Assembly: GCA_016934415.1 (NCBI GenBank)
Contig: JAFGSW010000086.1
Span: 2,042 to 66,041 of the forward strand
Direction of reading: 5' to 3'
From: Spirochaetales bacterium
GTDB lineage: Bacteria > Spirochaetota > Spirochaetia > SZUA-6 > RPPD01
DNA length: 64,000 bases
The translations under genes and the position numbers were made by a program. Positions 9,924 through 61,260 of this stretch are shown piece by piece (the first letter of the stretch is position 1; each line of letters begins with the position of its first letter). The notes under the pieces were generated by a model. The model made no database searches. It was not told the DNA's origin and worked only from the letters and a program-made list of their open reading frames with translations.

Positions 9924-11606
<1,683 letters not shown>

Positions 11607-27884: not shown

Positions 27885-28037
27885 AACGCTCCCGCATCAA
27901 CTGCGCGACGACGAGGTCGCGCGGGCGGTCGCCGGATGCGGAATGAGGATGGTTCAGACTGGCTGCGGTTGTTTTCCCACTTGCAGGTGATGTATGCGGG
28001 GAGAGTGCTGTTATGGCAGCGGGGAGGGGACGACGGT

Positions 28038-28706: not shown

Positions 28707-28830
28707 GTAAACGGGGATAAGCGGTAAAATACGATTCTCCTCTCTTCCGTGACGCCGCCAGTATATGCAAGGAACGGTCTTTTTTCAAGCCCGCGCCTGG
28801 CGCTTGCGCCGCGACTTGCCTTCAATTATC

Positions 28831-29751
28831 ATGACCATGATGCACGGGACCACCGGCAAACGGAAACGACGCGCGAAGCGCGCAGCCCTGCCCTTATATC
28901 TCCTCCTGGCCTCGGCGGCGGTCTGCGCTCCCGGCGACAAGCGGGAACCGGCCGAGCCCCCTCCCGCTGCCGCCTGCCTGGGGACGGCGGTGCTCGAGCG
29001 GGTTGACGATCTCCTCGCCGGGAAAACCTTCGAATTGCACTATCTCATAATCCGCGGGGAACGGGTGCTCTCCGTCTGGCTGGTCGTACCGGAGCTCGAC
29101 GATGTCGCCGCGGGCCCCGCTTTCGAAAATGCGCGGCGTTTGTCACTGCTCACCGGCGCTCGGCTCGGTCACCGGCTGGTCGCGGAGATTCCCTGCGTGC
29201 GGATCTTGTTCGACGCCTTCAATCCGATGATCGTCGACTCCCGCTTCAATTGCTGGTATCGTGACATCGTCCCGCTCGCGAATCTGCTGCCCGACCGGCG
29301 GCCAGCGGATGAGGAGCTTATCCGCTCGGTCCTGGCGCGCGACTTGAAGTACTCCTACCGGCGCAGCCTGCCGCCGCGCGCCGACCGGATCGATGCCGTC
29401 TCCTCGCTCGACGAGTGGCGTTCGCTGCGCCGGGCCCTCCGGCCGATCATCAGCCCCGGCGCGGGGCGCCGCAACGCCGCCGCGTATCCTATGTTCGTGA
29501 ACGACTACTGCATCGTGCAGGCGACCTGGCCGGCCGAATCTTCCGCCGATATCGAGGACGAGGCCGTCTCGGGGCGGATGCTCGCCGCGGCCCGCCTGAT
29601 GGGCCGGATCGGCCTTCGGACCGGACGCCTGGATATGACGATTACCGACAGGTTCGGCCGGCTGCGCGCCTACGGCAAGGTCGACGGCGCCATGCTCGGC
29701 CCGGGCAAGGCTCTTTCCGATGAGAACATCATTTATTACAGATTGCCTTGA
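28831..29751 (+). CDS. Hypothetical secreted protein
   Basis: Start MTMMHGTTGKRKRRAKRAALPLYLLLASAAVCAPG (signal peptide). No recognisable domain. Confidence 0.5.
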   Translation: MTMMHGTTGKRKRRAKRAALPLYLLLASAAVCAPGDKREPAEPPPAAACLGTAVLERVDDLLAGKTFELHYLIIRGERVLSVWLVVPELDDVAAGPAFENARRLSLLTGARLGHRLVAEIPCVRILFDAFNPMIVDSRFNCWYRDIVPLANLLPDRRPADEELIRSVLARDLKYSYRRSLPPRADRIDAVSSLDEWRSLRRALRPIISPGAGRRNAAAYPMFVNDYCIVQATWPAESSADIEDEAVSGRMLAAARLMGRIGLRTGRLDMTITDRFGRLRAYGKVDGAMLGPGKALSDENIIYYRLP

Positions 29752-29881: not shown

Positions 29882-29938
29882 AGTACTCCCCAGATTGTGC
29901 AGGACAAAACACGCCGCCCCCCGCCGGAAGGCCGGCCG

Positions 29939-31093
29939 CTATTTTCCGGTGATCTGGATTTTTTCGCCTTCCTCCAGGACGCGGAAAATGCTCGTGCCCG
30001 CCTGATCCGAAGTTTGGATGAGAACGGGCTCGGCGAGCTGTACGCCGTTTTTGTCCACCAGGATTTTGACGACCGGGCATTTCGGGTTCTGGGGGTTGGT
30101 CTTGACGACCACGCCCTTGGCCTTGTTGGTGAGGAGCACGTAGGTGCCCACCGGGTAGAGCGAAATGGAGAAGATGAGCGCCTTCAGGACGTTCTCGTCG
30201 TACCGGTTCCTGTTGTTCTTGAGGAGGTCGATGATGCCGTGGTGGCCGTCGAGCGAGTCCTTGAACGGCCTCTCGGCGGTGATGCCGTCGAAGGAGCAGG
30301 CCACCGCCACGATGCGCGAGTAGAGCGAGATCTGCTCGCCTTTGAGGGCCCGCGGGTAGCCGGAGCCGTCGAGGCGTTCATGGTGTTCCATCGAGACGAG
30401 GGCGAGAGGCTCGGGGACGGAGAGGGCGCGCAGGCTCTTGTAGCCGGCGATGGTATGGGCCAGTATGTTCTTTTTCTCGGACTGGTCGAGCGGTTTCTCG
30501 CTCATGTACAGGGCCGGCGGCAGGCGGAGCATGCCGATGTCGTGCAGCAGGGCCGCGATCCCGAGCTCAATGAGCCGGTGAGGCGCCAGCTTGAGGATAT
30601 TCCCGATGGCGAGGGAGAGGAGCGCGGTGTTGACGCTGTGGTTGTACAGATAATTTTCGGTGGGAAACTTGAGCTCGGCGAAGCGCAGGATGAAGTCCTT
30701 GTGCTTCTTGACATGTTCAATGGTCGACTTGATCTTATCGGTGAGGAGAGGGACGTCGAGCTCGTTCTTGGACAGGAAATCTGTGAACAGCTCTTTGGTG
30801 AAGGTGAGCAGGTCGAAGTAGAATTTCCCGACCGCTTCCTGATCGTTTTTCTGCCGGATGTTCTCGTCGAGGGTGTATTCGATGGTGGGGGTGTCGTCGG
30901 TTTTAACGAATTCCGACCGGGTGACGGGGTTGCCGCCGGTATAAAGCTTGGTGTAGTTCCACTTTTTCAGCCGCTCGATCAAGCTCTCGTCCACCGCGAC
31001 GTCAGGGCTGAGCACGATGTATTTCTCGTCCAGAAACACGGATTCGGTGAAATTCATGTTGGGCATGAGACTGTCGACCCTGATCGCGTTCAT
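29939..31093 (-). CDS. HD-GYP domain c-di-GMP phosphodiesterase
   Basis: LLHDIGM ... HHERLDGSGYP signature. CAGGAG RBS. Confidence 0.85.
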   Translation of the reverse strand: MNAIRVDSLMPNMNFTESVFLDEKYIVLSPDVAVDESLIERLKKWNYTKLYTGGNPVTRSEFVKTDDTPTIEYTLDENIRQKNDQEAVGKFYFDLLTFTKELFTDFLSKNELDVPLLTDKIKSTIEHVKKHKDFILRFAELKFPTENYLYNHSVNTALLSLAIGNILKLAPHRLIELGIAALLHDIGMLRLPPALYMSEKPLDQSEKKNILAHTIAGYKSLRALSVPEPLALVSMEHHERLDGSGYPRALKGEQISLYSRIVAVACSFDGITAERPFKDSLDGHHGIIDLLKNNRNRYDENVLKALIFSISLYPVGTYVLLTNKAKGVVVKTNPQNPKCPVVKILVDKNGVQLAEPVLIQTSDQAGTSIFRVLEEGEKIQITGK

Positions 31094-31160
31094 CCCGGCA
31101 CTCCTGTTGACCTCACTACTAATATACTATACCATGCAACTTCGTCATAGGGGTCGTCCG

Positions 31161-31967
31161 ATGAAATTTAAAATCATTTTCATCATTTTTAATATCGTCA
31201 TCATCTCGTCGTTTTTATTCATCTTTCTTTCTCCCCTGTTCGTCATGGGGCCGGCCGGGTTTCTCTACCTGCTTCAGCAGAATTACGTCATCGCCGTCGT
31301 TTTTTTCGTCTTTTTAGCGGGATTCAATCTCTTTTTTTTCAAGAACTGGCGGTACTACTCCTACCTGGAGAACGAGGACTGGAATTCCCTGATCACCTAC
31401 CTCGAAGACAGCATTTATCGACGGCGCTCGACGCGCGTCGGATTCATCCGCACGCTCCTCAATGCCTACGTCGTCACCTCGAATATGGCGGGGATCTCGC
31501 GTCTTGAGAAGCATTTTTCCGAGCGTAAGCCGTCCGTTGTGGAGCGATTTTCACTGCAATTCGGCATTCCGTATCTTCTCGGCAATCAACCGCAGGCCGG
31601 GGAGGCGTTTTTCGCGAGTCTGCTCAATCAGCCGGGCACGCACCACCGCGAGTGGATGCGCTGGAATCTCGCCTTCAGCCTGCTCCAGCAGAACAAGATC
31701 GAGCCGGCCAAGCGCGAGCTCGTCGCCCTCCTCGATCACTCGGGCGATTTCGTGCTCACTCTCCTCGTGCTCTACCTTCTCGAGCCCTATTCCCAAAAAG
31801 ACCGGGAAACGGGTGAAAAGGTGTCTCGGGCCCTCGTCGCCTACAGGGGAAAAATCACCAAGCCCCGCTGGGAAGCCCTGTTCGAAGACGCCAAGAAGAA
31901 TATCGAGGTGCTCATGCTCACCCAGATCATCGGCGACGCGAGCAAGTGGTTCTTCCAGGAGGCATAG
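31161..31967 (+). CDS. Hypothetical polytopic membrane protein
   Basis: Start MKFKIIFIIFNIVIISSF. Three N-terminal TM helices then a soluble helical region. Divergent from the HD-GYP gene. Confidence 0.55.
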   Translation: MKFKIIFIIFNIVIISSFLFIFLSPLFVMGPAGFLYLLQQNYVIAVVFFVFLAGFNLFFFKNWRYYSYLENEDWNSLITYLEDSIYRRRSTRVGFIRTLLNAYVVTSNMAGISRLEKHFSERKPSVVERFSLQFGIPYLLGNQPQAGEAFFASLLNQPGTHHREWMRWNLAFSLLQQNKIEPAKRELVALLDHSGDFVLTLLVLYLLEPYSQKDRETGEKVSRALVAYRGKITKPRWEALFEDAKKNIEVLMLTQIIGDASKWFFQEA

Positions 31968-32240: not shown

Positions 32241-33221
32241 ATGGTAGAAGGCCTCTCCAAACGCATCGCCGGGGACTGGGTTGATCTCGGGCAGGCCGGC
32301 TTGTCGTTGACAGCGCTCGCCGAGTACTTCGCCTTTGAGCCCCCGGTGGTCGCCGCGATTTCCCAGAAACTCTCATCGTCCGTACTCCAGGGGGTCGTCG
32401 AATACAAGCAGGGCGTGCTCCAGCCGCTCTTCCAGGTGCTGGAGGACATGAAGTACAAATCAATCGCCTTTGATGCGCTGGCGCGGCAGAATGGCGAGAT
32501 CGGGAGGCTCGTGTTCGTCACCCTCATCCAGCGCCTGTTCGCCTCGGGCGGGCTCAAACCCGAGGGCGGTGAAGAGTCCTCGCCCGCCGCCTCGGAGAAA
32601 CCAGAGACCGACCTCAAGGCGATCCTTGCGGACGTGATGACGCGCGTGCGCGAAGAACCCGCGCTCAAGAACAACACGGCCGTCAAGCTCATCCTCACCC
32701 AGCTCGCCATTTATCAGCGCGAGCGGGAGGTCATGGAAAAACTGAAACCGAATATCAAGGACCGGGAGAAGGCCGTCTCCTTCCGGAAAAATTTCACGGC
32801 CACGTTCAAGAAAATATCCCAGAATATCCGGAAATACTACGGCGAATTCATGGAGTCGCAGCGGGCGGGCGCCGATCGGGACCGGCGGCCGTCGCTCGGC
32901 CGGTACCGGCTGCGCGAGTTGACGGGGCTTTTTACCAGGCAGGCCCGCGAATTTGCGCGCATCCGGTCCACCCTCGGCTTCGCCCTCGATCAGAAATACA
33001 AGGTGCGGGAAATTTGCGTCCACCTGTTCAACGAAAAGAAAGAGTTTATTACCCTTCTCGATCAGGAGACGACCGCGTGCCGCGCGCTCATCGACGATGG
33101 GCCGGGCGGCGGGAAGCGGAACGACGGCCACGAAGTCAGCGTGGCCTTCGCCTCCGAAATCGCCGCGCTGGTGGGAAAACTGGCAGCGCGGGAAGTCAAA
33201 AGCGACCGGGAGTCGGATTAG
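32241..33221 (+). CDS. Hypothetical protein (326 aa)
   Basis: Protein-like composition with charged helical segments. No known domain. Confidence 0.55.
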   Translation: MVEGLSKRIAGDWVDLGQAGLSLTALAEYFAFEPPVVAAISQKLSSSVLQGVVEYKQGVLQPLFQVLEDMKYKSIAFDALARQNGEIGRLVFVTLIQRLFASGGLKPEGGEESSPAASEKPETDLKAILADVMTRVREEPALKNNTAVKLILTQLAIYQREREVMEKLKPNIKDREKAVSFRKNFTATFKKISQNIRKYYGEFMESQRAGADRDRRPSLGRYRLRELTGLFTRQAREFARIRSTLGFALDQKYKVREICVHLFNEKKEFITLLDQETTACRALIDDGPGGGKRNDGHEVSVAFASEIAALVGKLAAREVKSDRESD

Positions 33222-33505: not shown

Positions 33506-34201
33506 TCAGGGGACCGTCACCACCGACAGCTGGTGCCGGTCGACATCGATGACCACTCGTTCATTGAGGGGGTCGATGAAGGAGACGCCGTCAAGAACGA
33601 AGTAATACAGGTGTCGGCCGGGGAGAAGCTTGATTTTGATGCTATATACTCCGGGCTGTGTTTCCGAAAGCCGGTGAGTGAAGGGATTATAGTTATTAAA
33701 ATCGCCGGCGATGGTGATGAGTTCTCCGGGTTGCCCCGCCACCGTGAATTCCACATACCCGTCCCCCAACAGTCGGGGGCTCTCAAGTGTGGGCTGATCG
33801 GTCTTCTGAACGGAGAAGAGCGAGAAAACGACGCCCCGTTCGTCGGTGACGCTTGCGGGATTGGCCGGATCCGCCATCCAGACGCCGTCGACCATGAAGC
33901 GATACCTGACGACCCCACCGGACGCGGGAAGCGGTAGCGACAACACGTACACGCCGTTTTCGTTTTTCCTGAAGGTATGAAAAATCTCGTATTTTTCGTG
34001 GCTGAAACGCGCCCCCACGATGAAAACGCGCGCCGCGGGACGGTAGCTGAAAATGACGAGGTCGTTGAAGACCTCCGGGGGACGGGCGTTTTCAAAAGCC
34101 TGCAGGTGCAGGTTTAAATCCACCGATTCGGCCGAGACCTGGATGAGGCTCAGCGTCAGGAACAGAACGGCCGCCGAGCTCGTCATACGAAACGATGTCA
34201 T
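33506..34201 (-). CDS. Secreted protein with CBM48/AMPK-beta glycogen-binding-like (E-set) domains
   Basis: Signal peptide. YRFMVDGVWMADPANP and YYFVLDGVSFIDPLN motifs typical of CBM48. Confidence 0.65.
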   Translation of the reverse strand: MTSFRMTSSAAVLFLTLSLIQVSAESVDLNLHLQAFENARPPEVFNDLVIFSYRPAARVFIVGARFSHEKYEIFHTFRKNENGVYVLSLPLPASGGVVRYRFMVDGVWMADPANPASVTDERGVVFSLFSVQKTDQPTLESPRLLGDGYVEFTVAGQPGELITIAGDFNNYNPFTHRLSETQPGVYSIKIKLLPGRHLYYFVLDGVSFIDPLNERVVIDVDRHQLSVVTVP

Positions 34202-39854: not shown

Positions 39855-42389
39855 TTACGCATGGATTTCCACCGTAATCGGCAGCCGGTCGACCGGCGGA
39901 TGGATGACGATCCAATCGCCTTCGGTCTTCACCCGCTCGCCCCGCAGCTCCTCGCCGTTCGCGGTCACGCGGCCGGGCGGAGCCGTGTTCCCGAAGCGGG
40001 CCAGGCGGAGCACGACCGAGGAGAACCGGCCGAGCGGCGCCGTCTTGAGGCCGTCGGTCTGCTCGATCAAAACCGACGTCCGCCCATCGGCTTCATGCCC
40101 GGAAACGCCGACCAGCGAGTATTGTTTTTCGGCATAGGCCAGGGTTTCGCCGTCGTCCAGGTAAAGCTCGCCGGAGAAGGAGGCCGCCGGGAAAACGTCG
40201 AGGGAGAGGGTTTGCTCGTATAGTTGGTCCGATGAGGTGAAGGCGCCGGGCTTGCTCGCGAGCAGCGGCAGCACCGCCCCCCGGCGTACGAACAGGAGCA
40301 GGCGAGCGAGCGGCACGTCGAAGGTTTCCTCCTTTCCGCCCTGGTGGATCTCGTGCGTCCGGTACTCCACCCATTCAGTGGAGGGCGCTTGAGGGGAACC
40401 CGGGAAATAAACGTCCCGGCCGAACCGGCCTTTCTCGAGCACCGGCGCGACGAGCAGGTCGCCGCCGCAGAGGTATTCCGTGTCCGCGACGCCGGGTCGC
40501 ACGCAACCGGGATCGCCGGGGAAGTCGTAGGCGAGCGGCCGGCAGACCGGATCGCCGGTCACCGTGCCCTCCCGGATCGCGGCGTAGAGGTAGAGCAGGA
40601 ACGCGTAGCGCAGCCGGATAAACTCGACGGAAATCGATTCGATTTCATCGCCGAAGGCCCACATCTCCTGCGGCGGCATCCCGTTCGCCGTGTGGTTGCG
40701 GTGGAAGGGAAGGAAGGTGGCCGCCTGGAGGAAGCGGACGAAGAGCTCGGGCGTGGGCGCGCCCCAGAACCCGCCGATATCGGGTCCGGTCATGATCTGG
40801 CCGGAAAGGCCGAGGTTCATCACCATGGGCAGGCTCATGCGCAGGTGCGACCATTCGCTCTTGATGTCGCCGGTCCAGGACGATGCGAACCGCTGGATCC
40901 CGGCGTAGGACGAGCGCGTGAAGAGAAACGTTCTTTTCCCCGGGCGGAGCCGGTCCAGCCCCGCGGCCGTCGCCCGGGCCATGAGAAAGCCGTAATAGTT
41001 GTGAAGGCTCGCGTGGTCGCGGCGGGCCAGCGTTCCGCCGGCCGCTGCCGGCTCGACCGTGTGGACGACCGCGTCGGGCAGGGTGCGGCGCGCGGTGAAG
41101 GCCGCCGGCTCGTTCATGTCGATCCAGAAGCCGTCGACGAGCTTGTCCGTATGCACTTTAAATTGTTCGCCCCACCATTGCGCCGCGGCGGGCGACCCGA
41201 AATCCGGAAACGCGGCCGGCCCGGGCCAGACGGGCGCCTGCGCGATCGCGCCGTCGGGGAAGGCGAGGAAACAATCTTTCGCCTTCCCCTCGCGGTACAC
41301 GTCCCACTCCTCGTCCGCTTTCAAGCCCGGATCGGTGATGAGGACGGGATGAATGCGCCGCTCGCGCAGGCCGCTCAAGAAACCGTCAGGATCGGGAAAT
41401 CGCTCCGGGTCCCAGGTGAAGCAGCGATAGCCGCGCATGGCGCCGATGTCGACGTGCAGCGCGTCCAGAGGGATGCCCCGCTCCCGGAAGCCGCGCGCGA
41501 TCCCCCCGAGCCTATCCGCGCTCTCGTTCGCCTCCCAACGGGAATGGTGGTGGCCGAGCGCCCAGAGGGGCGGCAGGCGGTAATATCCGGTGAGGGCCGA
41601 GAATTGCCGCACCACGTCGCGAAGGCGCGGACCGCCCAGCAGGTAGAACGCGAGCGGGCCCCGCGCTGCGCCATAGCGGAAAGTCCCCGGCCGGCCGCGC
41701 CGCGGCAGCCTGAACCGGGTGTAATGCGGGTTGTCGAAGAAAAGACCGAAGGCCGAGCCGTTCTCTTCCAAAACGATCGCCAGCGGGCAGGACTGGTAGA
41801 GCGGATCCGAGCCCGGGTACATGTCCGAGAAATCGGTGTTCCACATGACGTAGGTTTCGCCGTTTTTGAAAAGCCCGCCGGTCTTTTGGCCGAAGCCGAG
41901 GGAGCGCGCGGTCCGCGGCGGCCGAAACGCGAATTCGACCCAGTCGCCCGCCATGGCGGGCCGGCCCTCCCCGAAGAGCTCATCGTCGCGGCGGCGCGCC
42001 CCGAAAAGCCCGGCCTCGAGGTCGATGACGAGCTCCGGCCCTCCGCCTGATCCGGCCGCCGCGACCGAAAGGCGCCCGCCGTGTTCCCGAACCGCGAGCG
42101 GGAGCGGGATCTTGTCGACCACGGCGTAGGAAAAATATTCCCCGTCGTAAAAAGGTGTTGTCCGGACCCGCGCAAAGGAAACCACGATTTTCAATGCTCC
42201 CGCCTGAAGGGCGGATACGTCTACCCGGGCATTCGCGAATCGGGCGGTGAAAAGCGCGCCGCTTTCGTCGAGACCGTATTCGCGCAACCCGCCGAGCGTC
42301 CGGCGGGGCAGGCCGGGGAAGCGGCGGTTGAGCAGGGGCTGCAGCACGTGGGTGGCGAGCTTGACTTTTAAAAAGGTTGCGAGGTCCAC
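39855..42389 (-). CDS. Glycoside hydrolase family 31 alpha-glucosidase
   Basis: GFWIDMNEPA catalytic-nucleophile region and GH31 WTGD motif. GTG start with a GAGGA RBS. 844 aa. Confidence 0.9.
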   Translation of the reverse strand: MDLATFLKVKLATHVLQPLLNRRFPGLPRRTLGGLREYGLDESGALFTARFANARVDVSALQAGALKIVVSFARVRTTPFYDGEYFSYAVVDKIPLPLAVREHGGRLSVAAAGSGGGPELVIDLEAGLFGARRRDDELFGEGRPAMAGDWVEFAFRPPRTARSLGFGQKTGGLFKNGETYVMWNTDFSDMYPGSDPLYQSCPLAIVLEENGSAFGLFFDNPHYTRFRLPRRGRPGTFRYGAARGPLAFYLLGGPRLRDVVRQFSALTGYYRLPPLWALGHHHSRWEANESADRLGGIARGFRERGIPLDALHVDIGAMRGYRCFTWDPERFPDPDGFLSGLRERRIHPVLITDPGLKADEEWDVYREGKAKDCFLAFPDGAIAQAPVWPGPAAFPDFGSPAAAQWWGEQFKVHTDKLVDGFWIDMNEPAAFTARRTLPDAVVHTVEPAAAGGTLARRDHASLHNYYGFLMARATAAGLDRLRPGKRTFLFTRSSYAGIQRFASSWTGDIKSEWSHLRMSLPMVMNLGLSGQIMTGPDIGGFWGAPTPELFVRFLQAATFLPFHRNHTANGMPPQEMWAFGDEIESISVEFIRLRYAFLLYLYAAIREGTVTGDPVCRPLAYDFPGDPGCVRPGVADTEYLCGGDLLVAPVLEKGRFGRDVYFPGSPQAPSTEWVEYRTHEIHQGGKEETFDVPLARLLLFVRRGAVLPLLASKPGAFTSSDQLYEQTLSLDVFPAASFSGELYLDDGETLAYAEKQYSLVGVSGHEADGRTSVLIEQTDGLKTAPLGRFSSVVLRLARFGNTAPPGRVTANGEELRGERVKTEGDWIVIHPPVDRLPITVEIHA

Positions 42390-42396
42390 GTCGTCC

Positions 42397-44628
42397 TCAC
42401 TTTCTCTTTTTCCCCCGGTCCTGACCGCGCGCCTGAAACATCAGTCCGGCGATCGAGGCCAGCGACGCGAGCATGAGAAGAATCCGCACCGGCAGGGGAT
42501 TGGCGATCGACTCCGCACCTCCGTACAAAAGGCACATTGCGACGATGAGGGCGGCGATGAATCCCCCCGCCTTCGCCGAGAGGGCGGCGGCGAAGAACAT
42601 CGGGTCCCGTCGTTCATTTGTTTTATCTCGCGCGGTGGCGGCCGCGTCGGCGGTGAAGAGGAGGGACAAGGCGAGGAGCAGGGCGATGGGAAAGGCGAGG
42701 AGAATCAGGGCCGCCAGGCCCCAGATCCAGGGCAGGGGATACCGGTAGGTCGTTACGCGTCCCTGGGCGAGCTCCGTGACGCCGCTCGCGGTCACGAACC
42801 AGGTCGAGCCGTTACGCGCGAAGAGCACGTCCTCCACCTTGTCGGCGGCCAGCCCGTCGGCCCGCGTCAGGACGCGTTTCCCCGCCGGGCCGGAGATGAA
42901 GCAGCCTGAGTCGGTGGCGACGAACAGCCGGCCGTCGGGAGCGGTTCTGATCGCGCGGACTGCGTCGCTCGGCAGGCCGTCGGCGCTCGTCAGATAAGTC
43001 CAGGCGGTTCCGGAAAGGCGGGCCACGCCCCGGTACGTACCCAGGAAGACGACGCCGTCCTCGCCGATTTCCAAGGAAGTGATCGTATCATCCTTCAGGC
43101 CCTTTCCCGTTGTGTACTCGGTCCAGTCGGACCCGCTCAGGCGATAGGCGCCCCTTTCCGTGCCCACCCAGAGATCGCCCTCCGGGCTCAAGCCGAAGGC
43201 GGTGAGCGGCGCCGCGGGATCTTTCCCGCCGGGCCGCTTCGGCGCGAATTCCACCCAGCGCGAGTTCTCGCGGTCGAGGAGCGAGACGCCGACGGGCGTC
43301 AGGAACCAGACGGCGCCGCCGCGCTGCATCACGGCGATCACCCGGTTGTCGATCAATCCGGAGGCCTTGGAATAGTGGGTCCAGGCCGCGCCGTCGAAGA
43401 AGCTGGCGCCGCCTTCCGTGGCGAACCAGACGCCGCCGTCCCCGGCCGAGATCGAATTGATGCGGTCGTCGATCAGCCCCTCCCGCCGGGTGACCTGCGA
43501 CCAGGCGCCCGCTGCGAAGCGGGAGGCGCCGCGCTTGGTGCCGATCCAGACGCCGCCGTCGGGAGCCTGGGCCGCGGAGACGGCGCAGTTCCAGCGCAGG
43601 CCCGATTCGTCGGGCGCGAATCCGGTCGCGGCGAGGACGAGAAGTCCCGCGGCGAGCGCGGCCGATCCCGCCACGCCCAGCTTTCTCTTGTCCAGTTTCG
43701 CCGCAAGCGGCCGGAGGAACGGCGGGAAAATGAGCCCCGCCGCCAGGAAGGCGACGACGGAAAGGCGTGTGAATTCCGCGTCCACGAGCATCAGGTCCCG
43801 GCCGACGAAATAAAGCGACGCGGCCAGGGCGGCGAGCGCGAAGGATACGCACGCTTCGGCGCGCAGGAAGCGGGAGAAGGCGCGGTGTGACGCCGCCGTC
43901 CTCAATGCGCGCGCGGCGGCCGCGGGAAAAGACGCGTCGTGCCGCCGGGATGAATCTTTGGCCGGCTTCTCGCGCACGGTGAAGAAGGCGACGCTCACGA
44001 TGACGGCCGCCGGGAGTATCAGGAGAAAGACCGACCACTGGAACGAAGCGGTCGGGTCGAGGCCGGGGAACATGGTGAAGAAACCGGGGAGGAGGGCGAC
44101 CGGGAGGAGCGCGCCCGCGAACAGCAACGCGGTCTGGAGCGCCGCCAGGGACGCGCGATCCGCATCCACGGGCAGACTCGAGTAGCCCAGCGACAGGTAC
44201 GGAGCGAACGATACGGCCGCTCCGGCGCCCGCGGCCAGCGAAAAAAGGAACACCAGGACGAGGTTGACCGCGGCCGGACCGGCCGCGAACGGCAGAAAAA
44301 CCAGAAGCGAGGAAAGCGCGAGCAGCGGCAGGCCGGCGAGGAGAAACGCCCGGCGTCCGCCCAGAGCCGTGCGTGATCTGCCGGCTTGAAAGGCGGCGAG
44401 CGGCGAGACGACCGCGAAGGCGAGAAGCCCGAGGAGCGCGGCAAACCAGAGGGAGCGGATGTTGTCCGGGGGAAGTGCGGGCAGAAAGCGGGGCAGGCCG
44501 TCCTTGAGGCGTTCGAGCGGTGGTGAGAAAAACGCGGCGCCGCCCGCCGTCAGGGAGACGAGGATCAGGCCGTAGCCGGCGGTGGAGAACGCGTACAGAA
44601 AGAATCGTAGCCCGCGTAATCGTTTCAC
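42397..44628 (-). CDS. Polytopic membrane protein (MFS-like N-terminal ~9 TM) with a periplasmic beta-propeller of two-component-regulator-propeller-type repeats and 3 C-terminal TM helices
   Basis: Likely GTG start at 44628 with a GAGGAGG RBS; the ORF-track N-terminus MLYFILVYFIV is translated promoter DNA. Repeats DGGVWIGTKRGASRF / DGGVWFATEGGASFF / DLWVGTERGAYRL. Ends 8 bp before the GH31 start. Confidence 0.6.
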   Translation of the reverse strand: MKRLRGLRFFLYAFSTAGYGLILVSLTAGGAAFFSPPLERLKDGLPRFLPALPPDNIRSLWFAALLGLLAFAVVSPLAAFQAGRSRTALGGRRAFLLAGLPLLALSSLLVFLPFAAGPAAVNLVLVFLFSLAAGAGAAVSFAPYLSLGYSSLPVDADRASLAALQTALLFAGALLPVALLPGFFTMFPGLDPTASFQWSVFLLILPAAVIVSVAFFTVREKPAKDSSRRHDASFPAAAARALRTAASHRAFSRFLRAEACVSFALAALAASLYFVGRDLMLVDAEFTRLSVVAFLAAGLIFPPFLRPLAAKLDKRKLGVAGSAALAAGLLVLAATGFAPDESGLRWNCAVSAAQAPDGGVWIGTKRGASRFAAGAWSQVTRREGLIDDRINSISAGDGGVWFATEGGASFFDGAAWTHYSKASGLIDNRVIAVMQRGGAVWFLTPVGVSLLDRENSRWVEFAPKRPGGKDPAAPLTAFGLSPEGDLWVGTERGAYRLSGSDWTEYTTGKGLKDDTITSLEIGEDGVVFLGTYRGVARLSGTAWTYLTSADGLPSDAVRAIRTAPDGRLFVATDSGCFISGPAGKRVLTRADGLAADKVEDVLFARNGSTWFVTASGVTELAQGRVTTYRYPLPWIWGLAALILLAFPIALLLALSLLFTADAAATARDKTNERRDPMFFAAALSAKAGGFIAALIVAMCLLYGGAESIANPLPVRILLMLASLASIAGLMFQARGQDRGKKRK

Positions 44629-44871
44629 CGACGCCTCCTCGTTTTTTTTTATGCGGGCGCCGAAGCGCTCGACGACGGCCGGGGCGACCCGGTCCCGTCC
44701 GCTCCCCGGCCCGGAGTCAGAATAATCGGAAATGAAAAAAGAATCAACAAATCCGGGCTTGACAAGTACTATAAAATATACTAATATAAAATATAGCAAT
44801 ACGCGAAGGAGAGGGCGCTGCGTACTGGGGGGGCCCTCTCCTTTTCCATTGCGTCACCCGGGGGAGGGGCG

Positions 44872-45387
44872 GTGTCGTCGATTGATCTCGTGCTGCTGGG
44901 TCTTCTGGCCCGGCAGCGGCGGAGCGCCTACGATCTGGCCAAGGAAATAGCGCGGTACGAGCTTGACGGCGTCGTCCGCTTGAGCATCCCGGCCATCTAT
45001 AAAAACGTCAAACACCTGGAAGAGCGGCGCTACCTCGAGCGGCGCGAAACGCGCCGCGGCGAGATGCCGGAGAAGACGATCTACTCGCTCACCGCCCTCG
45101 GCCGCGAGCGGTTCCTCGCGCTCATGGAGCAATGCGCGGCGGAGAAGGTCCGCTATCGATTCGATTTCAATCCGGTCATCCTCAATCTGGACGGCGTGCC
45201 GAAACAGCGGCGCGGGAAGCTGCTTCGCCTCATGAAGGAGAGCCTGGCGGCGGGGAGAAAAGAGCTGGAGGAATCGCTTGAGGCGTGGAAGGAAAAATCG
45301 ACCACCGCCGGCCTCATTCTGGGACAGGTGGAGTCGGTGAGCCGGGCGCTGGGCGAATGGATCGACGACGCGTTGAAGAAAACGTGA
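44872..45387 (+). CDS. PadR-family transcriptional regulator
   Basis: LVLLGLLARQRRSAYDLAKEI ... IPAIYKNVKHLEERRYLERRE winged-helix signature. Confidence 0.8.
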   Translation: MSSIDLVLLGLLARQRRSAYDLAKEIARYELDGVVRLSIPAIYKNVKHLEERRYLERRETRRGEMPEKTIYSLTALGRERFLALMEQCAAEKVRYRFDFNPVILNLDGVPKQRRGKLLRLMKESLAAGRKELEESLEAWKEKSTTAGLILGQVESVSRALGEWIDDALKKT

Positions 45388-45393
45388 CGTATT

Positions 45394-45490
45394 GTAGAGA
45401 CGCGCGGCCGTGGGTTGCTACAATTTCAATCGCCCGTGTGGTTTTTCAAGTATAGATATAGCGTAGAGACGCACGGCCGTGCGTCTCTAC
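45394..45490. promoter_or_regulatory. Two copies of GTAGAGACGCRCGGCCGTG; the second is a perfect 28-bp palindrome
   Basis: Copy 1 at 45394-45421 is an imperfect palindrome. Copy 2 at 45463-45490 is gtagagacgcac-ggcc-gtgcgtctctac. Between the convergent PadR and HD-GYP genes. Confidence 0.5.
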
Positions 45491-45507
45491 GATTCAATCC
45501 CGCGTGA

Positions 45508-47883
45508 TCATTTTTTGAATGTATACCCTTTTTCAATGAATAACCGTAGACAGGCGTCCACCGCGGACGGCTCGTACAGCGTGTTCTTGTTCTGCACGAT
45601 CTCGGCAAGCGCCATTTCGATGCCCAGCGATTCCCGGTACGGCCGGTGCGAAGCCATCGCCTCGACGACGTCCGCCACGGAGAGGATGCGGGCCTCCAGG
45701 CTGATCTGATCGCCTGAGAGGCCGCGCGGGTAGCCGGAACCGTCGAGCCGCTCGTGGTGCTGATAGACGATCTCGGCGATCGGCCAGGGGAAATCCACGT
45801 TTTTCAGGATGTCGAACGCTACTTGCGGATGGCGCTTGATCATGCTGAACTCGATGTCGTCCAAAATGCCCGACCGGTTGAGGATTTCGGACGGCACGTA
45901 GATTTTTCCCAGGTCGTGGATGATGCCCGCCATGCGGATGCACTCGATCTGCGACGGGGAGAGCCCCATTTCCTGGGCGATGTTGCGCGCCAGGTCCGAG
46001 ACGCGGTGCTGGTGCCCGGCGGTGTACGGATCGCGCGTCTCCACGGTCAGCGACATGGTCTGGATGAAACCGGCCATGGCGTGGCGCAGGGTGTCCAGCG
46101 TGCGGCCGAGGTCGTTTTTCTGCACCTGGAGCTCCTTGTAATGGATGGCCGCCTCCATGGCGCCGCCGATGATGTCGCTCAAGAAGGTGATGAAGCGCAG
46201 GCGCTTCGGCTCGACCGGGAAGAGGACGAAACCGATCCGCTTGAGCGACTTGACGATGACGTGCCGGGGCTCCGCGTCGGAGAGAAAATCGTCGGGGACG
46301 AGGTCCCGCGCGGGATAGACGGCGCGCGCAGGGTCCGATTCGATCCGCGTCCCGTCCCTGAAGGCGAGGAGGGAGCGGGCCAGCGCGCGGTCCGAATCGT
46401 ACAGGGCGATATAGCAGTCCTTTAGCTCCACCTCGGGCAGGCGATAGGCGAGGATGCCCATCTGCCGCTCGATGTCGAGGGTGACGATGATCTCGCGGAT
46501 GAGCTGCAGGGAGCGGCTCTCCTGAAGGTAGCCCATGAGACGGTCCCGCTCGCTCTGAATGGCCTGCCGGCCCAGATCCATCACCGCCTTGAAGCACTCG
46601 TCGCGGATCTCGGCGGGCATGTGCCGGTCGCCGTCGGGCGAGGCGCGGTCCGGCCATAACCCGTACAGCAATTCCTGAAACACGGAAAAATCGAGACCTG
46701 ATACCGAGGACTGCCGCGCGATCTCGCCGCAGGTCCAGGCGAATCGTTTTTCATCCCCTGCCTCGAACCCGTGCCGGAGGGATTCGACGAGCGAGGAGGC
46801 CAGGGCGGAGACGCTGCGTCCGGCGGCTCCCCGCGCGTCCTTCGCTCCCCGGACAGGGTGCGGGGCATCCGCCCATACGGCGACGGCCGGCGGCGTCTCT
46901 ATTCTCTTGCCCGGGACGGGATCCGCCCTGCCGCCGGTGCATCCGCAGGAGCGCCTGATGACCGGGACGGTCGGCAGCAGGGTTCGAGAGGGAACCGGTT
47001 TTCCCGCGAGAACCTCGACGAGCAGGCGCGCCGCGTTCCAGCCTTTTTCCCACACCGGCTGGCGCACGGTGGTGAGCGGCGGCTCGCTGTAGCCGGCGAT
47101 TTCCAGGTCGTCGAAGCCGGTGATGCTCAAGCGGCCGATCCTCTCCGGATCGCGCCGGGACAAGGTTTCGAGCGCGCCCACGGCCATGCTGTCGTTGGCG
47201 GCCACGATCGCGTCCACGCCGTCCAGACCCCGGCTCAGGAAATAATCCATGGCGTCCCGGCCCGAATCGGGGGTGAAGGAGCCCTGGTAGACCAGCTCAG
47301 GATCGAGGGGCAGCGAATGGTCTCCCAGGGCCTCGACGAAGGTTTCGTACCGCTCGGCCGCGTCCGGGTTGCCGTCCGTTCCCCGGATGAAGGCGAAGCG
47401 GCGCGCCTGGTGGCGATCAATGAGGTGGTCGATGAGATCGCGGAATCCCTGACGGTTGTCGGTCATGATCGAGGGCATGGAGGAGAGCTCCGCGCCGACG
47501 CTCACGGCCGGCAGGCCGGCGAAGCGCCCGCAGAAATCGGCGAAGGAGGAAAGTCCGACGTAGCGCGAGAGAGGGGCGGAGAGGATCACGAGGCCGTCGA
47601 CGGTTTCGCTTCCGGCCAGGTCGTAGACGGCGTTGCGCTGCAATTCGTATTCGTCCTGCGCCTTGAGGGCGCCGCCTTCGAAGAAGACGCAATTCATCCC
47701 GTGCTCGTGGACGTAATCCAGTATCCCGTTCAGGAGCAGGAATTGATAGTTGTCCGTCGTCCAGTCGATGAAGATGCCGATGGTCGTTCTTTTTCTGCTC
47801 CGATCTCCCATGTCGCCTTCCCGGCCCCCTCCGTCGGATGACCGTTCATTGGAATTATACGAACATCCGGCGTCGCGATTCAA
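45508..47883 (-). CDS. LacI-type sugar-binding-domain sensor fused to an HD-GYP c-di-GMP phosphodiesterase
   Basis: N-terminal Peripla_BP-like domain (TTIGIFIDWTTDNYQF...DAIVAANDSMAVGALETL) with no signal peptide. C-terminal HD-GYP (HHERLDGSGYPRGLSGDQIS). An alternative start lies at 47811. Confidence 0.8.
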   Translation of the reverse strand: MNRDAGCSYNSNERSSDGGGREGDMGDRSRKRTTIGIFIDWTTDNYQFLLLNGILDYVHEHGMNCVFFEGGALKAQDEYELQRNAVYDLAGSETVDGLVILSAPLSRYVGLSSFADFCGRFAGLPAVSVGAELSSMPSIMTDNRQGFRDLIDHLIDRHQARRFAFIRGTDGNPDAAERYETFVEALGDHSLPLDPELVYQGSFTPDSGRDAMDYFLSRGLDGVDAIVAANDSMAVGALETLSRRDPERIGRLSITGFDDLEIAGYSEPPLTTVRQPVWEKGWNAARLLVEVLAGKPVPSRTLLPTVPVIRRSCGCTGGRADPVPGKRIETPPAVAVWADAPHPVRGAKDARGAAGRSVSALASSLVESLRHGFEAGDEKRFAWTCGEIARQSSVSGLDFSVFQELLYGLWPDRASPDGDRHMPAEIRDECFKAVMDLGRQAIQSERDRLMGYLQESRSLQLIREIIVTLDIERQMGILAYRLPEVELKDCYIALYDSDRALARSLLAFRDGTRIESDPARAVYPARDLVPDDFLSDAEPRHVIVKSLKRIGFVLFPVEPKRLRFITFLSDIIGGAMEAAIHYKELQVQKNDLGRTLDTLRHAMAGFIQTMSLTVETRDPYTAGHQHRVSDLARNIAQEMGLSPSQIECIRMAGIIHDLGKIYVPSEILNRSGILDDIEFSMIKRHPQVAFDILKNVDFPWPIAEIVYQHHERLDGSGYPRGLSGDQISLEARILSVADVVEAMASHRPYRESLGIEMALAEIVQNKNTLYEPSAVDACLRLFIEKGYTFKK

Positions 47884-47951: not shown

Positions 47952-50324
47952 ATGAATCGCATGAAAGGCATCGGCGCGCTGCTCAAGGCATTGACCCTGG
48001 AGGAAAAGGCCTCCCTCATCATCGGGGCCGGGAATTGGACCACGGCGGCCGTGCCCCGTCTCGGGATCCCGTCGCTCTTTCTGGCCGACGGGCCGCACGG
48101 CGTGCGCCGCGTCGTGGACGAGCAGGGGCTGGGCATTCCCGGGCTGCCGGCCACCTGCTTCCCCACCGCCTCCTGCCTGGCCTCGACCTGGGATACGGCC
48201 CTCGTCGAGGAGCTGGGCCGGGCCCTTGGCGGCGAGGCCAAAGCCCTGCGCGTCGACGTCCTGCTCGGGCCGGGCGTCAACGTACGGCGCACGCCGCTGG
48301 GCGGGCGCAATTTCGAGTATTTTTCGGAGGACCCGTGCCTGGCCGGGGAGCTCGCGGCGGCGTTCATCCGCGGGGTGCAGAGCCGGGGCGTGGGGACCTC
48401 GCTCAAGCACTACGCGGCCAACAACCAGGAGTACGAGCGCTTCACCGTCGACGCCGTCGTCGACGAGCGCGCGCTGCGCGAGATCTACCTCGCCGCTTTC
48501 GAGACCGCGGTGAAAAAAGGCGCGCCCCGCACCGTGATGGCGGCCTACAACCGGGTGAACGGCGTGCGCGCCTGCGAGCACGCCGCGCTCATCGACGGAG
48601 TGCTGCGGCGCGAGTGGGGTTTCGACGGGGTCGTCGTCTCCGATTGGGGCGCGGTCAAGGACCGGGTCGTCTCATTGAAAGCGGGCCTGGATCTGGAGAT
48701 GCCCGGCCCGCGAAAGGACCGTCGCCGCGCCGTGGTGAGGGCGGTCAAGTCGGGAGCGCTGCCTCCGCGCGTTCTCGACCGGGCCGTGAGGCGGGTTCTG
48801 CGCCTGGCGGCGGCCTGCGCCGCGACATCCAAGGGCGGCGCGACGGATTGGGAGGCCCATCACTCGCTCGCCCGCCGGATCGCCGGGGAGGGTTTCGTGC
48901 TGCTGAAGAACGAGGGCGTGCTGCCGCTCGGCGATCCCGTGCGCGTCGCCGTCATCGGCCGCTCCGCCCCCGAGCCGTACGTCCAGGGCGGCGGCAGCTC
49001 CCGCGTCGCCGCCCGCCGCGTCGACGTCCCCCTGGACGAGATTCGCGCCCGGGCGGGCGGGGCGGAAGTATCTTTCTGTGAAGGATACCCGGCGGGTCCG
49101 GTCATCGATCAAAGGCTCGTGGACGAGGCGGCCGAACTCGCCCGCCGCGCCGAGGTCGCTCTTGTCTTCATCGCCCTCGACGAATTCGTCGAGTCCGAGA
49201 GCTGCGACCGGACGACGACCGATCTCCCGGCGAACCGGGTCGCCCTCATCAAGGCCGTGTGCGCCGCCCAACCGCGGACGGCGGTCATCCTCGGGAACGG
49301 GGGTGTGGTGACGATGGAGGAGTGGATCGACGGGGCCCCGGCCGTGCTCGAGACCTGGATGGCGGGCGAGGCCGGGGCCGGGGCAATCGCCGACGCGCTC
49401 TGGGGGGACGTCAATCCCTCGGGGAAGCTCCCGGAAACCGTGCCGCTCCGCCTGGCCGACACGCCGGCCTTCATCAACTACCCCGGCGAGAACGGCCGGG
49501 TGCGCTACGGCGAGGGGTTATTCGTCGGATACCGCTATTACGATTACCGGGGCGCGCCGGTGCGGTTTCCCTTCGGTCACGGCCTCTCCTATACGACCTT
49601 CGAGTACGGCCGGCTTTCATTCTCGGAGACGTCGTTCAAGGACGCTGACGGCCTCACCGTTTCGTTCGAGATCGCCAACACCGGAACGCGGGCGGGGAGA
49701 GAAACGGCGCAGGTGTACGTCCGCGACGTCCGCGCCTCGCTCGCGCGGCCGGTTAAGGAGCTCAAGGCCTTCGTCAAGACGGCGCTCGAGCCGGGCGAGC
49801 GGAAGGCGATCTCGGTTCATCTCGATTTCCGCGCCTTCGCCTTCTACCATCCGGGACTCGGCCGCTGGGTCGCCGAGAGCGGCGAGTTCGAGATCCTCGT
49901 CGGCTCCTCGGCCGCCGACATCCGCCTGCGGGGCGCGGTGCGGCTGCGCTCGACCGCAGGCGAACCGAGTTTGCTCGCCCCCGGATCGTCGGTGCGCCTG
50001 TGGCTGGACGACGAGCGCGGCGGTCCGCTCGTGCGGCCGCTCGTGGAGAAAATCGAGGCCGCGCTCTCGAAGGAGGGTGGCGGCGGGATGCTGGGATTTA
50101 TCCTGGAATCGCCGCTCGAGCGCCTCCTCCGCCAGTGGGAGGAGCCGCTCGCCCTCAACGCCGACGAGACAATGGCGGATATCATGCGGCGACTTCACGG
50201 GAAGTTTTCCGCGCCAAAACAGCCACGGAGACCCGGAGGACACGGAGGAGGAAAAGGAAACAATAAGGAAGCCAGGAAACCAGGAAAAAGGAATCTAGGA
50301 AAAGGGATCCAGGAAAAGAAATAG
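47952..50324 (+). CDS. Glycoside hydrolase family 3 beta-glucosidase whose last ~20 codons and stop are supplied by a MITE-like element
   Basis: GH3 motifs (GFDGVVVSDWGAV; KHYAANNQE). The tail ...NNKEARKPGKRNLGKGIQEKK* is encoded by aataaggaagccaggaaaccaggaaaaagg... Confidence 0.9.
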   Translation: MNRMKGIGALLKALTLEEKASLIIGAGNWTTAAVPRLGIPSLFLADGPHGVRRVVDEQGLGIPGLPATCFPTASCLASTWDTALVEELGRALGGEAKALRVDVLLGPGVNVRRTPLGGRNFEYFSEDPCLAGELAAAFIRGVQSRGVGTSLKHYAANNQEYERFTVDAVVDERALREIYLAAFETAVKKGAPRTVMAAYNRVNGVRACEHAALIDGVLRREWGFDGVVVSDWGAVKDRVVSLKAGLDLEMPGPRKDRRRAVVRAVKSGALPPRVLDRAVRRVLRLAAACAATSKGGATDWEAHHSLARRIAGEGFVLLKNEGVLPLGDPVRVAVIGRSAPEPYVQGGGSSRVAARRVDVPLDEIRARAGGAEVSFCEGYPAGPVIDQRLVDEAAELARRAEVALVFIALDEFVESESCDRTTTDLPANRVALIKAVCAAQPRTAVILGNGGVVTMEEWIDGAPAVLETWMAGEAGAGAIADALWGDVNPSGKLPETVPLRLADTPAFINYPGENGRVRYGEGLFVGYRYYDYRGAPVRFPFGHGLSYTTFEYGRLSFSETSFKDADGLTVSFEIANTGTRAGRETAQVYVRDVRASLARPVKELKAFVKTALEPGERKAISVHLDFRAFAFYHPGLGRWVAESGEFEILVGSSAADIRLRGAVRLRSTAGEPSLLAPGSSVRLWLDDERGGPLVRPLVEKIEAALSKEGGGGMLGFILESPLERLLRQWEEPLALNADETMADIMRRLHGKFSAPKQPRRPGGHGGGKGNNKEARKPGKRNLGKGIQEKK
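50262..50300. repeat. Left terminus of a partial or truncated MITE-like element copy E5 overlapping the GH3 3' end
   Basis: AATAAGGAAGCCAGGAAACCAGGAAAAAGG. No convincing right terminus found downstream. Confidence 0.4.
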
Positions 50325-60344: not shown

Positions 60345-60513
60345 CGATAAAAGAGAACGTTTTCGGGGGACGGACCTCTCGTCCCCCGCTTTACCATATC
60401 CGCGTTGATTGCTAAAGTGAAATTATTCGGGAATAATCTTCCGAGTAAAAAGATCGATTCCGGTGAGGCCTGCGCCCATGCCGAATGGAGCGGACGGGCC
60501 GGAGGAGTTGTGT

Positions 60514-61260
60514 ATGAAAAAGACGATCGGAGCCGTCATCGCCGCCGCGCTGTTTCTCGTATTTTTTTCCTGCGCCACGGAAAAGCCGAAGGACACCAAG
60601 CGATTCCTCGACTTCGATCGGCTCATGAGCGCCGAGGAGAGCACCTATCTGCCGTTCGTCGTCGATGACAGGCGCATTCAGGAAATCAAGGAATTGTTCG
60701 TGAAGGACAATCTTCCGATGCGGCCGTACCGGATTGATTTCTCGGCCAAGATAACGATCCCGAAGGACGTGAAATACAGGGAGGCGTCCGCCGCGCTCAA
60801 CCAAAAGATCGTCGCCGACTTCTTCAATGCCCTGAAACCGCCGGTAAGACTCGCGGCCATTCAGGAAAACAAGTATTTCATCTGCGGCGCCTACCTGACC
60901 GCGCTTCTCAAAAAAAGCGGTTTACTCTCCCAATTGAATTATACAAAAGTCATCGGCCCGTTCAATTACTTCAAGCGGCAGGACGTTTTGCTGGAATGCA
61001 CGATTCGCGAGGATTCGATACCGAGAATTTTCAGCCTTCTCCGCAACCTCCTTTATTCGGACGGTGCGATTACGGTGAGGAAATTGACCGCCCAGGAGCT
61101 CGATTGGTATTGGGTGTCCAGCAGTTACGATATCGAAGAGCCCATTTTCGTGTTCGAGAACAGCCGGCACAAAATCATGATCCATTTCACGCCGGAAGGC
61201 CAGATATTCTTTTTGGAGCTCTTCGATACTTTAAATTGGAAGGTCCGAAACGCCAATTGA
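60514..61260 (+). CDS. Hypothetical lipoprotein
   Basis: GGAGG RBS. MKKTIGAVIAAALFLVFFSC lipobox. No known domain. Confidence 0.6.
   Translation: MKKTIGAVIAAALFLVFFSCATEKPKDTKRFLDFDRLMSAEESTYLPFVVDDRRIQEIKELFVKDNLPMRPYRIDFSAKITIPKDVKYREASAALNQKIVADFFNALKPPVRLAAIQENKYFICGAYLTALLKKSGLLSQLNYTKVIGPFNYFKRQDVLLECTIREDSIPRIFSLLRNLLYSDGAITVRKLTAQELDWYWVSSSYDIEEPIFVFENSRHKIMIHFTPEGQIFFLELFDTLNWKVRNAN

Follow-up and report, generated by a model that had tools for sequence, protein, structure and literature searches.

A predicted cytoplasmic protein of a Spirochaetales bacterium links a LacI/GalR-type core to an HD-GYP domain through a conserved, unnamed module

Could a cytoplasmic LacI-type binding core control the hydrolysis of cyclic di-GMP (c-di-GMP) within one protein chain, and could it read the sugars handled by the neighbouring genes? 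This question is raised by a minus-strand gene at 45508 to 47811 of the window, the whole stretch of 64,000 nucleotides from a Spirochaetales bacterium that was analysed here (assembly GCA_016934415.1, contig JAFGSW010000086.1, positions 2,042 to 66,041). The original prediction, made from the letters of the window, described the product as a LacI/RbsB-type sugar-binding fold joined directly to an HD-GYP domain. Both domains were recovered (Peripla_BP_3, Peripla_BP_1 and HD_5 all matched in Pfam), and the fold proved to be that of the LacI/GalR repressor core and not the RbsB type; the two are not joined directly, a conserved module of about 290 residues lying between them. The best explanation of this arrangement, to which we give an even chance, is a sugar-responsive one-component enzyme in which the LacI-type core controls c-di-GMP hydrolysis via the intervening transmitter. 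The gene and its parts are as follows:

45508..47811, minus strand: coding sequence of the predicted sensor-phosphodiesterase, 767 amino acids (stop codon 45508-45510, start codon ATG 47809-47811)
46936..47790, minus strand: LacI/GalR-type effector-binding core with type I periplasmic-binding-protein fold (residues 8-292; predicted local distance difference test score, pLDDT, 90-98)
46939..46956, minus strand: R-R-S-C-G-C motif, the family hallmark, at the end of the core (residues 286-291)
46822..46932, minus strand: variable linker (residues 294-330, pLDDT 27-48, variable in the alignment)
46627..46812, minus strand: helical bundle, first half of the middle module (residues ~334-395, pLDDT 60-85, no Pfam match)
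46207..46614, minus strand: GAF-like alpha/beta domain (residues ~400-535, pLDDT 90-97)
46033..46209, minus strand: signalling helix connecting the GAF-like and HD-GYP domains (residues 535-593, a single unbroken helix in the model)
45568..46053, minus strand: HD-GYP domain (Pfam HD_5, residues 587-748)

This architecture is held with near certainty. The domain order from the N-terminus is that of the list, with the HD-GYP domain placed at residues 595-760 of the whole chain. AlphaFold2 modelling of the full-length protein from an 81-sequence family alignment gave a mean pLDDT of 77, and a sub-model of residues 325-600 gave a mean of 86. Because no hydrophobic 19-mer occurs in the 767 residues and the core's first strand already starts at residue 10, leaving no room for a signal peptide, the predicted protein is soluble and cytoplasmic, without a membrane anchor, as had been proposed. 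The features of a transport protein of the RbsB/MglB type were absent (no signal peptide, an N-terminus that is not hydrophobic), and the NCBIfam models of RbsB, MglB and XylF gave weak partial matches (E-values 1e-6 to 6e-2).

At the catalytic end, the HD_5 match reached 137.1 bits (cut-off 27.2, E = 6.6e-40) and covered profile positions 4-168 of 170. Alignment to the solved structures 4mcw (PmGH), 5z7c (V-cGAP3) and 4r8z (PA4781) mapped all seven ligands of the binuclear metal site (H600, H632-D633, H661, H685-H686 and D714) together with G693-Y694-P695; ligands and GYP were invariant in 8 orthologues, and the motifs were retained in 12 orthologues. Every sequence feature of the HD-GYP family that was tested is thus present, and the domain is, judged by its motifs, not degenerate, which disposes of one of the two doubts attached to the original prediction. 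The closest solved relatives were 5z7c (E = 2.4e-39), 4mcw (E = 9e-31) and 4r8z (E = 1e-19). Tyr596, within D-P-Y-T-A-G-H, occupies the position of the third-metal Glu of PmGH, which we take to be E185 (an offset of 6 is consistent for three aligned ligands); V-cGAP3 likewise carries Tyr there. Since Tyr596 replaces this Glu, a metal site of the binuclear type is expected, and the lack of the third-metal Glu leaves membership in the wider HD-GYP family unaffected. Taken alone, the HD-GYP domain was 48-66% identical to those of Desulfobacterota, Syntrophia, Anaerolineae, Aminicenantes and a Legionella (loci L017-L093), compared with 38-43% identity overall for the full-length orthologues L014-L016, and the catalytic domain therefore belongs to a tightly conserved D-P-Y-T-A-G-H-Q subfamily. 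On these motifs the domain is probably an active phosphodiesterase. Its main substrate is reasonably likely to be c-di-GMP.

At the sensory end, Peripla_BP_3 matched residues 127-289 (E = 1.4e-24) and Peripla_BP_1 residues 60-280, and Peripla_BP_4 was also matched. Residues 4-290 aligned to the NCBIfam models of CytR, LacI, RbsR, GalR, PurR and CcpA, and the helix-turn-helix of these regulators is missing because the alignments begin past it, at about model positions 54-70; no helix-turn-helix match was obtained in Pfam for the protein. Lacking this element, it is, by sequence, not a LacI-family DNA-binding regulator. A Foldseek search with the full model returned LacI-family cores with template modelling (TM) scores to the target of 0.85-0.88 and 30-32% identity, among them a LacI ancestor with fucose, CelR with cellobiose (5ysz), AscG (3brq), RbsR with ribose (9ny7) and CcpA, and for this reason we call the core repressor-type (LacI/GalR) and not a transport binding protein. 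The second doubt attached to the original prediction, that the N-terminus might not be a sugar-binding fold, is answered by these scores and by the anchor residues of the pocket.

The pocket was compared with that of Escherichia coli LacI, using a reference sequence in which known residues were confirmed at their known numbers. R197, N246, D274 and Q291 of LacI correspond to R154, N206, D234 and Q251 here, and the PPLTT(V/I)(R/K)Q motif of LacI is retained. In the 81-sequence alignment R154 and D234 were invariant, conservation was also high at F/Y179 (96%), D/E150 (96%), Y22 (94%), Q251 (91%) and Q23 (81%), and positions 19, 106, 117, 208, 253 and 256 were variable; the clade of the protein departs from the family consensus at four of the latter (T19, T117, V253 and K256). 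One orthologous locus (L003, 10001-17417) carries three tandem paralogues that each run in full from LacI core to HD-GYP domain, with mutual identities of 45-57%; all keep the anchor residues and differ at variable pocket positions 78, 117, 208, 251 and 256. A fixed polar anchor in varying surroundings is the pattern expected, on sequence grounds, of a pocket with diverging ligand specificity.

The core ends in the motif R-x-S-C-G-C, of which R286, S288, C289 and C291 were invariant in 81 of 81 aligned members. Canonical LacI repressors end in R-x-S without CxC, and E. coli LacI, aligned to the protein, has K-R-K-T and no cysteines at the matching place. The CxC junction presumably lies directly past the last hinge-crossing strand (about residues 320-330 of LacI). 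A dimer would gather four cysteines here, and these might make up a metal or redox site. The following region (residues ~293-593, more than one third of the protein) gave zero Pfam matches even at E <= 10, and no Pfam or NCBIfam model covers it. Its GAF-like domain is built of a long helix, a second helix and five strands, and bears the conserved motifs LPxLGI, FPxxxLVP and GF, with G527 invariant in the 81 sequences. Foldseek matched it to the GAF domains 3oov, 3lfv, 5w10, 3ci6 and 3k2n (E = 3e-4 to 3e-3, TM to the target ~0.5); no GAF profile match was obtained for residues 285-590 in Pfam, even at E <= 10. The signalling helix was predicted in both models, as H535-593 in the full model and H211-268 in the sub-model.

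Far from being a one-off inside a glycan cluster, the fusion represents an uncommon output form within a large family of sensors found in many contexts. A homology search retrieved eight full-length relatives only (38-100% identity), and more than 100 further proteins that matched residues 5 to ~565 (E = 1e-84 to 1e-60, 27-35% identity) and then continued into HisKA/HATPase_c, SpoIIE-type PP2C, GGDEF, STAS, additional GAF/PAS or a LuxR helix-turn-helix, or into no output at all (555-660 amino acids). A profile of the middle module (alignment A2), searched against 1.84 billion representative proteins, matched 4,461 at E <= 1e-3, 3,350 at E <= 1e-10 and 1,576 at E <= 1e-30, so that the family comprises at least 3,350 clusters at 50% identity. 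Among the 150 best profile matches the module started at residue 290-390 in 125, the exceptions resembling N-terminal fragments; because it begins just past a core-sized N-terminus, the LacI core and the middle module form, by this measure, a near-obligate pair. The CxC motif was present in 250 of 263 family members, and nine of the 13 others have lost the core and resemble N-terminal fragments. The protein itself shows the homology over residues 5 to ~565, the CxC at the C-terminus of the core and the start of the module ~330-370 residues in that mark this family. The outputs of the 263 members were classified by ad hoc C-terminal profiles (three members with two outputs were counted twice): 123 had a histidine kinase, 22 PP2C, 16 GGDEF, 10 STAS and nine HD-GYP (~3%), and none of these was recognised in 39 proteins shorter than 700 amino acids and in 47 of 700 or more. 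HD-GYP is, in this sequence sample, a rare output of this large family. Histidine kinase, PP2C, GGDEF, STAS and HD-GYP outputs are all driven by one kind of sensor module, and such interchangeable outputs are as expected, from the sequences, for a true input module. A genome scan of 185,579 species, each represented by a single genome, used HD-GYP-specific peptide patterns and, owing to their specificity, brought up mainly HD-GYP proteins that are unrelated; only three of the 80 retained loci were full-length relatives. These three come from metagenome-assembled genomes, as do all orthologues found. The family is largely confined to uncultured or little-studied lineages, its source-named members including Spirochaetales and Polyangiaceae, and literature searches (Peripla_BP_3 with HD-GYP or GGDEF; LacI-like with RsbU) found no characterised member.

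The minus-strand open reading frame spanning 45508-47883, from which the original prediction started, is real, and its longest form opens at TTG 47883; this start was rejected, since the codon falls on the -35 box of the promoter predicted for the gene itself:

47854..47883, minus strand: putative sigma-70-like promoter (-35 TTGAAT at 47883-47878, 18-nucleotide spacer, -10 TATAAT ending at 47854)

The promoter is a predicted element called by consensus match only, with 10 of 12 consensus positions matched (4 sites found against 0.6 expected in shuffles). Because of this overlap, of a purine-rich stretch immediately 5' of ATG 47811 and of the same Met being the first residue in eight orthologues, the true start is, from sequence, almost certainly ATG 47811. 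An identical protein is on record in NCBI nr as 'MAG: substrate-binding domain-containing protein [Spirochaetales bacterium]'.

The gene is flanked by the glycoside hydrolase (GH) family 31, membrane-propeller, PadR and GH3 genes that had been described around it:

47952..50324, plus strand: GH3 glycosidase without signal peptide (cytoplasmic), divergent from the sensor-phosphodiesterase gene, syntenic in orthologous loci
44872..45387, plus strand: PadR-family regulator, convergent with the sensor-phosphodiesterase gene and divergent from the transporter-GH31 pair, syntenic
42397..44799, minus strand: GPH/MFS_2-type transporter with Reg_prop beta-propeller, start codon uncertain, syntenic
39855..42389, minus strand: GH31 glycosidase without signal peptide (cytoplasmic), syntenic

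The starts of the sensor-phosphodiesterase and GH3 genes are 140 bp apart, with the predicted promoter between them, and its stop lies 120 bp from that of the PadR gene. Being divergent from the one and convergent with the other, it stands outside any operon with the hydrolases and is, from this arrangement, monocistronic. The specificities first given to the hydrolases (GH31 'alpha-glucosidase', GH3 'beta-glucosidase') are family-level guesses: no NCBIfam equivalog threshold was reached by either protein, GH31 scoring 374 bits with the alpha-glucosidase MalA model (cut-off 800) and 218 with that of alpha-xylosidase, and GH3 729 with an arabinopyranosidase model (cut-off 1300) and 514 with a beta-glucosidase model. 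An analogy with E. coli yicI-yicJ would suggest xyloglucan/isoprimeverose; this reading was considered and is not favoured by these scores. Neither a signal peptide nor a hydrophobic segment was found in the sensor-phosphodiesterase, GH3 or GH31, and without signal peptides the sensor, the hydrolases and the imported sugar would share one compartment. In the transporter, the Reg_prop propeller occupies residues ~400-680 and is bracketed by hydrophobic segments, at 113-373 before it and at 687, 734 and 765 after it, which indicates that the propeller is inserted within the transporter and not appended; the fusion is kept in L005. Reg_prop propellers are known sugar-sensing domains of hybrid two-component systems of Bacteroides.

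Synteny supports a carbohydrate link in part of the family. The order GH3, sensor-phosphodiesterase, PadR, MFS-Reg_prop, GH31 was kept, as far as the contigs reach, in L004, L005 and L007 (58%, 56% and 52% identity). At 44-46% identity, the orthologues of L001 and L006 stand beside mraZ with no hydrolase; that of L003 (38%) is the first of the three tandem paralogues, and L014 and L015 (43% and 39%) have no glycan genes in the flanks scanned. In L016 (38%; 3177-10421), from another Spirochaetales metagenome-assembled genome, the orthologue is followed by DnaJ-domain, GGDEF and GH31 genes, and a cNMP-binding protein of metallo-beta-lactamase fold is encoded upstream. The glycan-cluster setting that had been proposed is thus borne out for the close clade and for a single distant orthologue from Spirochaetales, and fails in five other loci.

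Among family members with other outputs, the loci L008 (1-16490) and L013 (1-12705), whose closest source-named relatives are Polyangiaceae, share a conserved cluster with genes for GH48, GH9, GH94, an RsbW-like HATPase_c_2 protein, a sensor-PP2C, a phosphofructokinase, a sensor-histidine kinase and one or two REC-DUF3369-GGDEF proteins. GH48, GH9 and GH94 are cellulose and cellobiose enzymes, and the sensor module is used twice in each locus; going by gene content, the module leads there to c-di-GMP synthesis via a two-component route. The route from the sensor module to c-di-GMP turnover thus appears at least twice in these sequences, with different wiring. The context of further loci with other outputs (L009, L010, L011 and L012) was uninformative, a PfkB kinase gene lying near the family member in L012. 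Judged from gene neighbourhoods, the carbohydrate link is real in some lineages and not universal.

The window encodes further c-di-GMP proteins within 25 kb, all three of which had been correctly noted:

25503-27884, plus strand: 7TM (HisKA_7TM)-PAS-GGDEF-EAL protein
29939-31093, minus strand: second HD-GYP protein, 384 amino acids, with no family match in its N-terminal 145 residues
21531-21896, plus strand: single-domain PilZ protein (E = 4.9e-9), located by listing small open reading frames

A plus-strand reading frame at 29897-31150 was rejected as a gene; it matched no family, and the real gene there is that of the second HD-GYP protein.

We propose the following mechanism for the sensor-phosphodiesterase. 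A small polar ligand, which is most likely a sugar or a sugar-derived metabolite that would be cytoplasmic once the GPH transporter, GH3 and GH31 work, would enter the cleft of the LacI/GalR-type core, and its binding would alter the geometry of the core dimer. This change would be relayed from the CxC junction through the helical bundle and a GAF-like dimer to the long signalling helix, which would raise or lower the activity of the binuclear-type HD-GYP phosphodiesterase and hence c-di-GMP hydrolysis. Carbohydrate status would thereby be tied to the c-di-GMP network, to which the GGDEF-EAL, second HD-GYP and PilZ proteins of the window would belong. LacI/GalR cores dimerise obligately and close their lobes on the effector, and GAF and signalling-helix transmitters are parallel dimers that work by helix rotation or register shift; the enzyme is probably dimeric, and from these known systems we infer by analogy the dimer-based transmission. 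The class of ligand and the substrate are inferred as well. From the pocket and the gene context, a ligand of carbohydrate type is a balanced proposition, and a ligand tied to the hydrolases of this particular locus is a more tentative one.

Several observations weigh against this mechanism. The pocket pattern and the sequence name no particular ligand, and LacI-family cores also bind purines (PurR), nucleosides (CytR) and HPr-Ser-P with sugar phosphates (CcpA). The anchor positions are identical in family members of unrelated contexts, which on sequence grounds may suggest a general metabolite as ligand and not one that the locus produces, and five of the nine other loci with the HD-GYP form (L001, L006, L003, L014 and L015) have no adjacent glycoside hydrolase. 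Mechanical coupling between core and transmitter would have to cross a low-confidence, variable linker of ~35 residues. The HD-GYP part of the full model had low pLDDT, the alignment being shallow there (eight sequences), and the best solved match (5z7c, V-cGAP3) is annotated as 3'3'-cyclic GMP-AMP (cGAMP)-specific, which leaves room for another substrate.

A broader reading places the protein within its family. The LacI-type core, the CxC, the helical bundle and the GAF-like domain would together be a widespread, unnamed cytoplasmic module that reads an intracellular sugar or sugar metabolite, maybe with a metal or redox input at the four-cysteine dimer site, and feeds histidine kinases, PP2C partner-switching phosphatases, diguanylate cyclases and HD-GYP enzymes. 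We put this forward tentatively, as a possible account that is short of an even chance; if true, carbohydrate status in a spirochaete would act on c-di-GMP breakdown directly, through this one protein.

Among the rival explanations, the one that survives best, although it is unlikely, holds that the LacI-type core serves chiefly as a scaffold for dimerisation or binds a general metabolite, that the decisive input is redox or metal at the CxC or a ligand of the GAF-like domain, and that the hydrolase neighbours are incidental. The invariance of C289 and C291, the presence of CxC in nearly all family members, the small ligands often bound by folds of the GAF class and the loss of hydrolase synteny in the five orthologous loci named above all speak for it. 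However, the anchor residues of sugar-binding LacI proteins are invariant as well, which would be needless for a pure scaffold, and variable pocket positions differ between the tandem paralogues, as for ligand specificity. The family-wide alignment also holds no further conserved Cys or His as metal partners, and the GAF-like domain is small, with conserved residues that look structural.

More doubtful is the possibility that 3'3'-cGAMP or linear pGpG/pApG is the substrate of the HD-GYP domain, so that a different nucleotide pool would be tuned. Its best solved match is the Vibrio cholerae enzyme V-cGAP3, named a 3'3'-cGAMP-specific phosphodiesterase, with which it shares the Tyr of D-P-Y-T-A-G-H, and binuclear HD-GYPs such as PA4781 reportedly prefer pGpG. 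Substrate choice in HD-GYP domains is, however, not readable from motifs; GGDEF-EAL and PilZ proteins are encoded in the window, and the organism accordingly uses c-di-GMP, no cGAMP synthase (DncV/CD-NTase type) was present among the window reading frames scanned, and one distant orthologue adjoins a GGDEF gene.

That the ligand of the core is a partner protein or a phosphorylated signal of carbon status, and that the core thereby reports global carbon flux in the manner of CcpA, which binds HPr-Ser-P with fructose-1,6-bisphosphate or glucose-6-phosphate, is improbable, since its closest matches are sugar binders (the LacI ancestor with fucose, CelR with cellobiose, AscG and RbsR) and not CcpA, and no HPr or HPr kinase gene was found among the window reading frames scanned, although CcpA structures and models were among the good matches, the anchors are conserved across members from unrelated contexts, and a phosphofructokinase gene lies beside family members in L008 and L013 and the PfkB kinase gene near that of L012.

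The preferred reading, a sugar-responsive one-component phosphodiesterase, has partial precedents. PmGH (4mcw), PA4781 (4r8z) and V-cGAP3 (5z7c) share its catalytic domain, with H/HD/H/HH/D ligands and GYP; their inputs, unlike its own, are REC, GAF-like or tandem HD-GYP N-terminal regions and in no case a LacI-type core, and PmGH has the third-metal Glu where the protein has Tyr. LacI, CelR, AscG, RbsR and CcpA share its core, the anchors and PPLTT(V/I)(R/K)Q, and are likewise cytoplasmic, but LacI/GalR repressors bear an N-terminal helix-turn-helix, whereas the output here is attached to the C-terminus of the core, and they lack both the invariant CxC and the 290-residue transmitter. As in other one-component c-di-GMP phosphodiesterases, sensor, transmitter and catalytic domain lie in one chain. 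RmcA of Pseudomonas aeruginosa (SBP_bac_3, PAS, GGDEF-EAL) also combines a sensor of binding-protein fold with a c-di-GMP enzyme in one chain; its sensor is of type II, periplasmic, part of a membrane protein and responsive to L-arginine, whereas the protein described here is soluble and has a type I, LacI-type core and an HD-GYP domain. A census of 2022 listed a LacI-like binding-protein domain among the sensor domains of unknown function of c-di-GMP enzymes, SBP_bac_3 (RmcA, arginine) being the only one studied in c-di-GMP networks within the periplasmic-binding-protein clan (PMC8846402).

Signalling domains are modular, so the fusion itself will not surprise a specialist; what is novel is the input side, where an unnamed module marked by the CxC couples a LacI-type core to the output. 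The inputs of most c-di-GMP enzymes are unknown, and this protein, being soluble, free of membrane parts and equipped with a well-understood type of pocket, lends itself to testing; the neighbouring GH3, GH31 and transporter suggest a short list of candidate ligands. As the module is common and attached to at least five kinds of output, the ligand of one member would inform on thousands of signalling proteins.

The gap between the stops of the sensor-phosphodiesterase and PadR genes contains two related palindromes:

45391..45424, no strand assigned: palindrome with 17-nucleotide arms, 76% complementary
45462..45491, no strand assigned: perfect palindrome (30 bp) with 15-nucleotide arms

Their consensus is GTAGAGACGCnCGG / CCGnGCGTCTCTAC. 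Going by their sequence and position, they may serve as hairpin terminators of the two genes or else as an operator; no T-run follows either palindrome. A supposed third copy at 31252 was rejected, since it sits in coding sequence and is not palindromic.

Elsewhere in the window, long open reading frames at 445-1728, 8040-9773, 27838-28788, 28765-29751, 31017-31967, 32241-33221 and 60463-61260 (265-577 amino acids) had no Pfam match at E <= 1e-3 or 1e-4; some form overlapping pairs in which either strand may be the coding one. A bacterial alpha-2-macroglobulin of 1,893 amino acids, with full MG, bait-region and thioester-domain matches, is encoded at 2062-7743 (minus strand). Two carbohydrate-related genes lie outside the five-gene island, one for a SASA-family carbohydrate esterase (21908-23443, minus strand) and one for a small protein with two glycogen-binding modules (AMPK1_CBM/CBM48; 33506-34201, minus strand).

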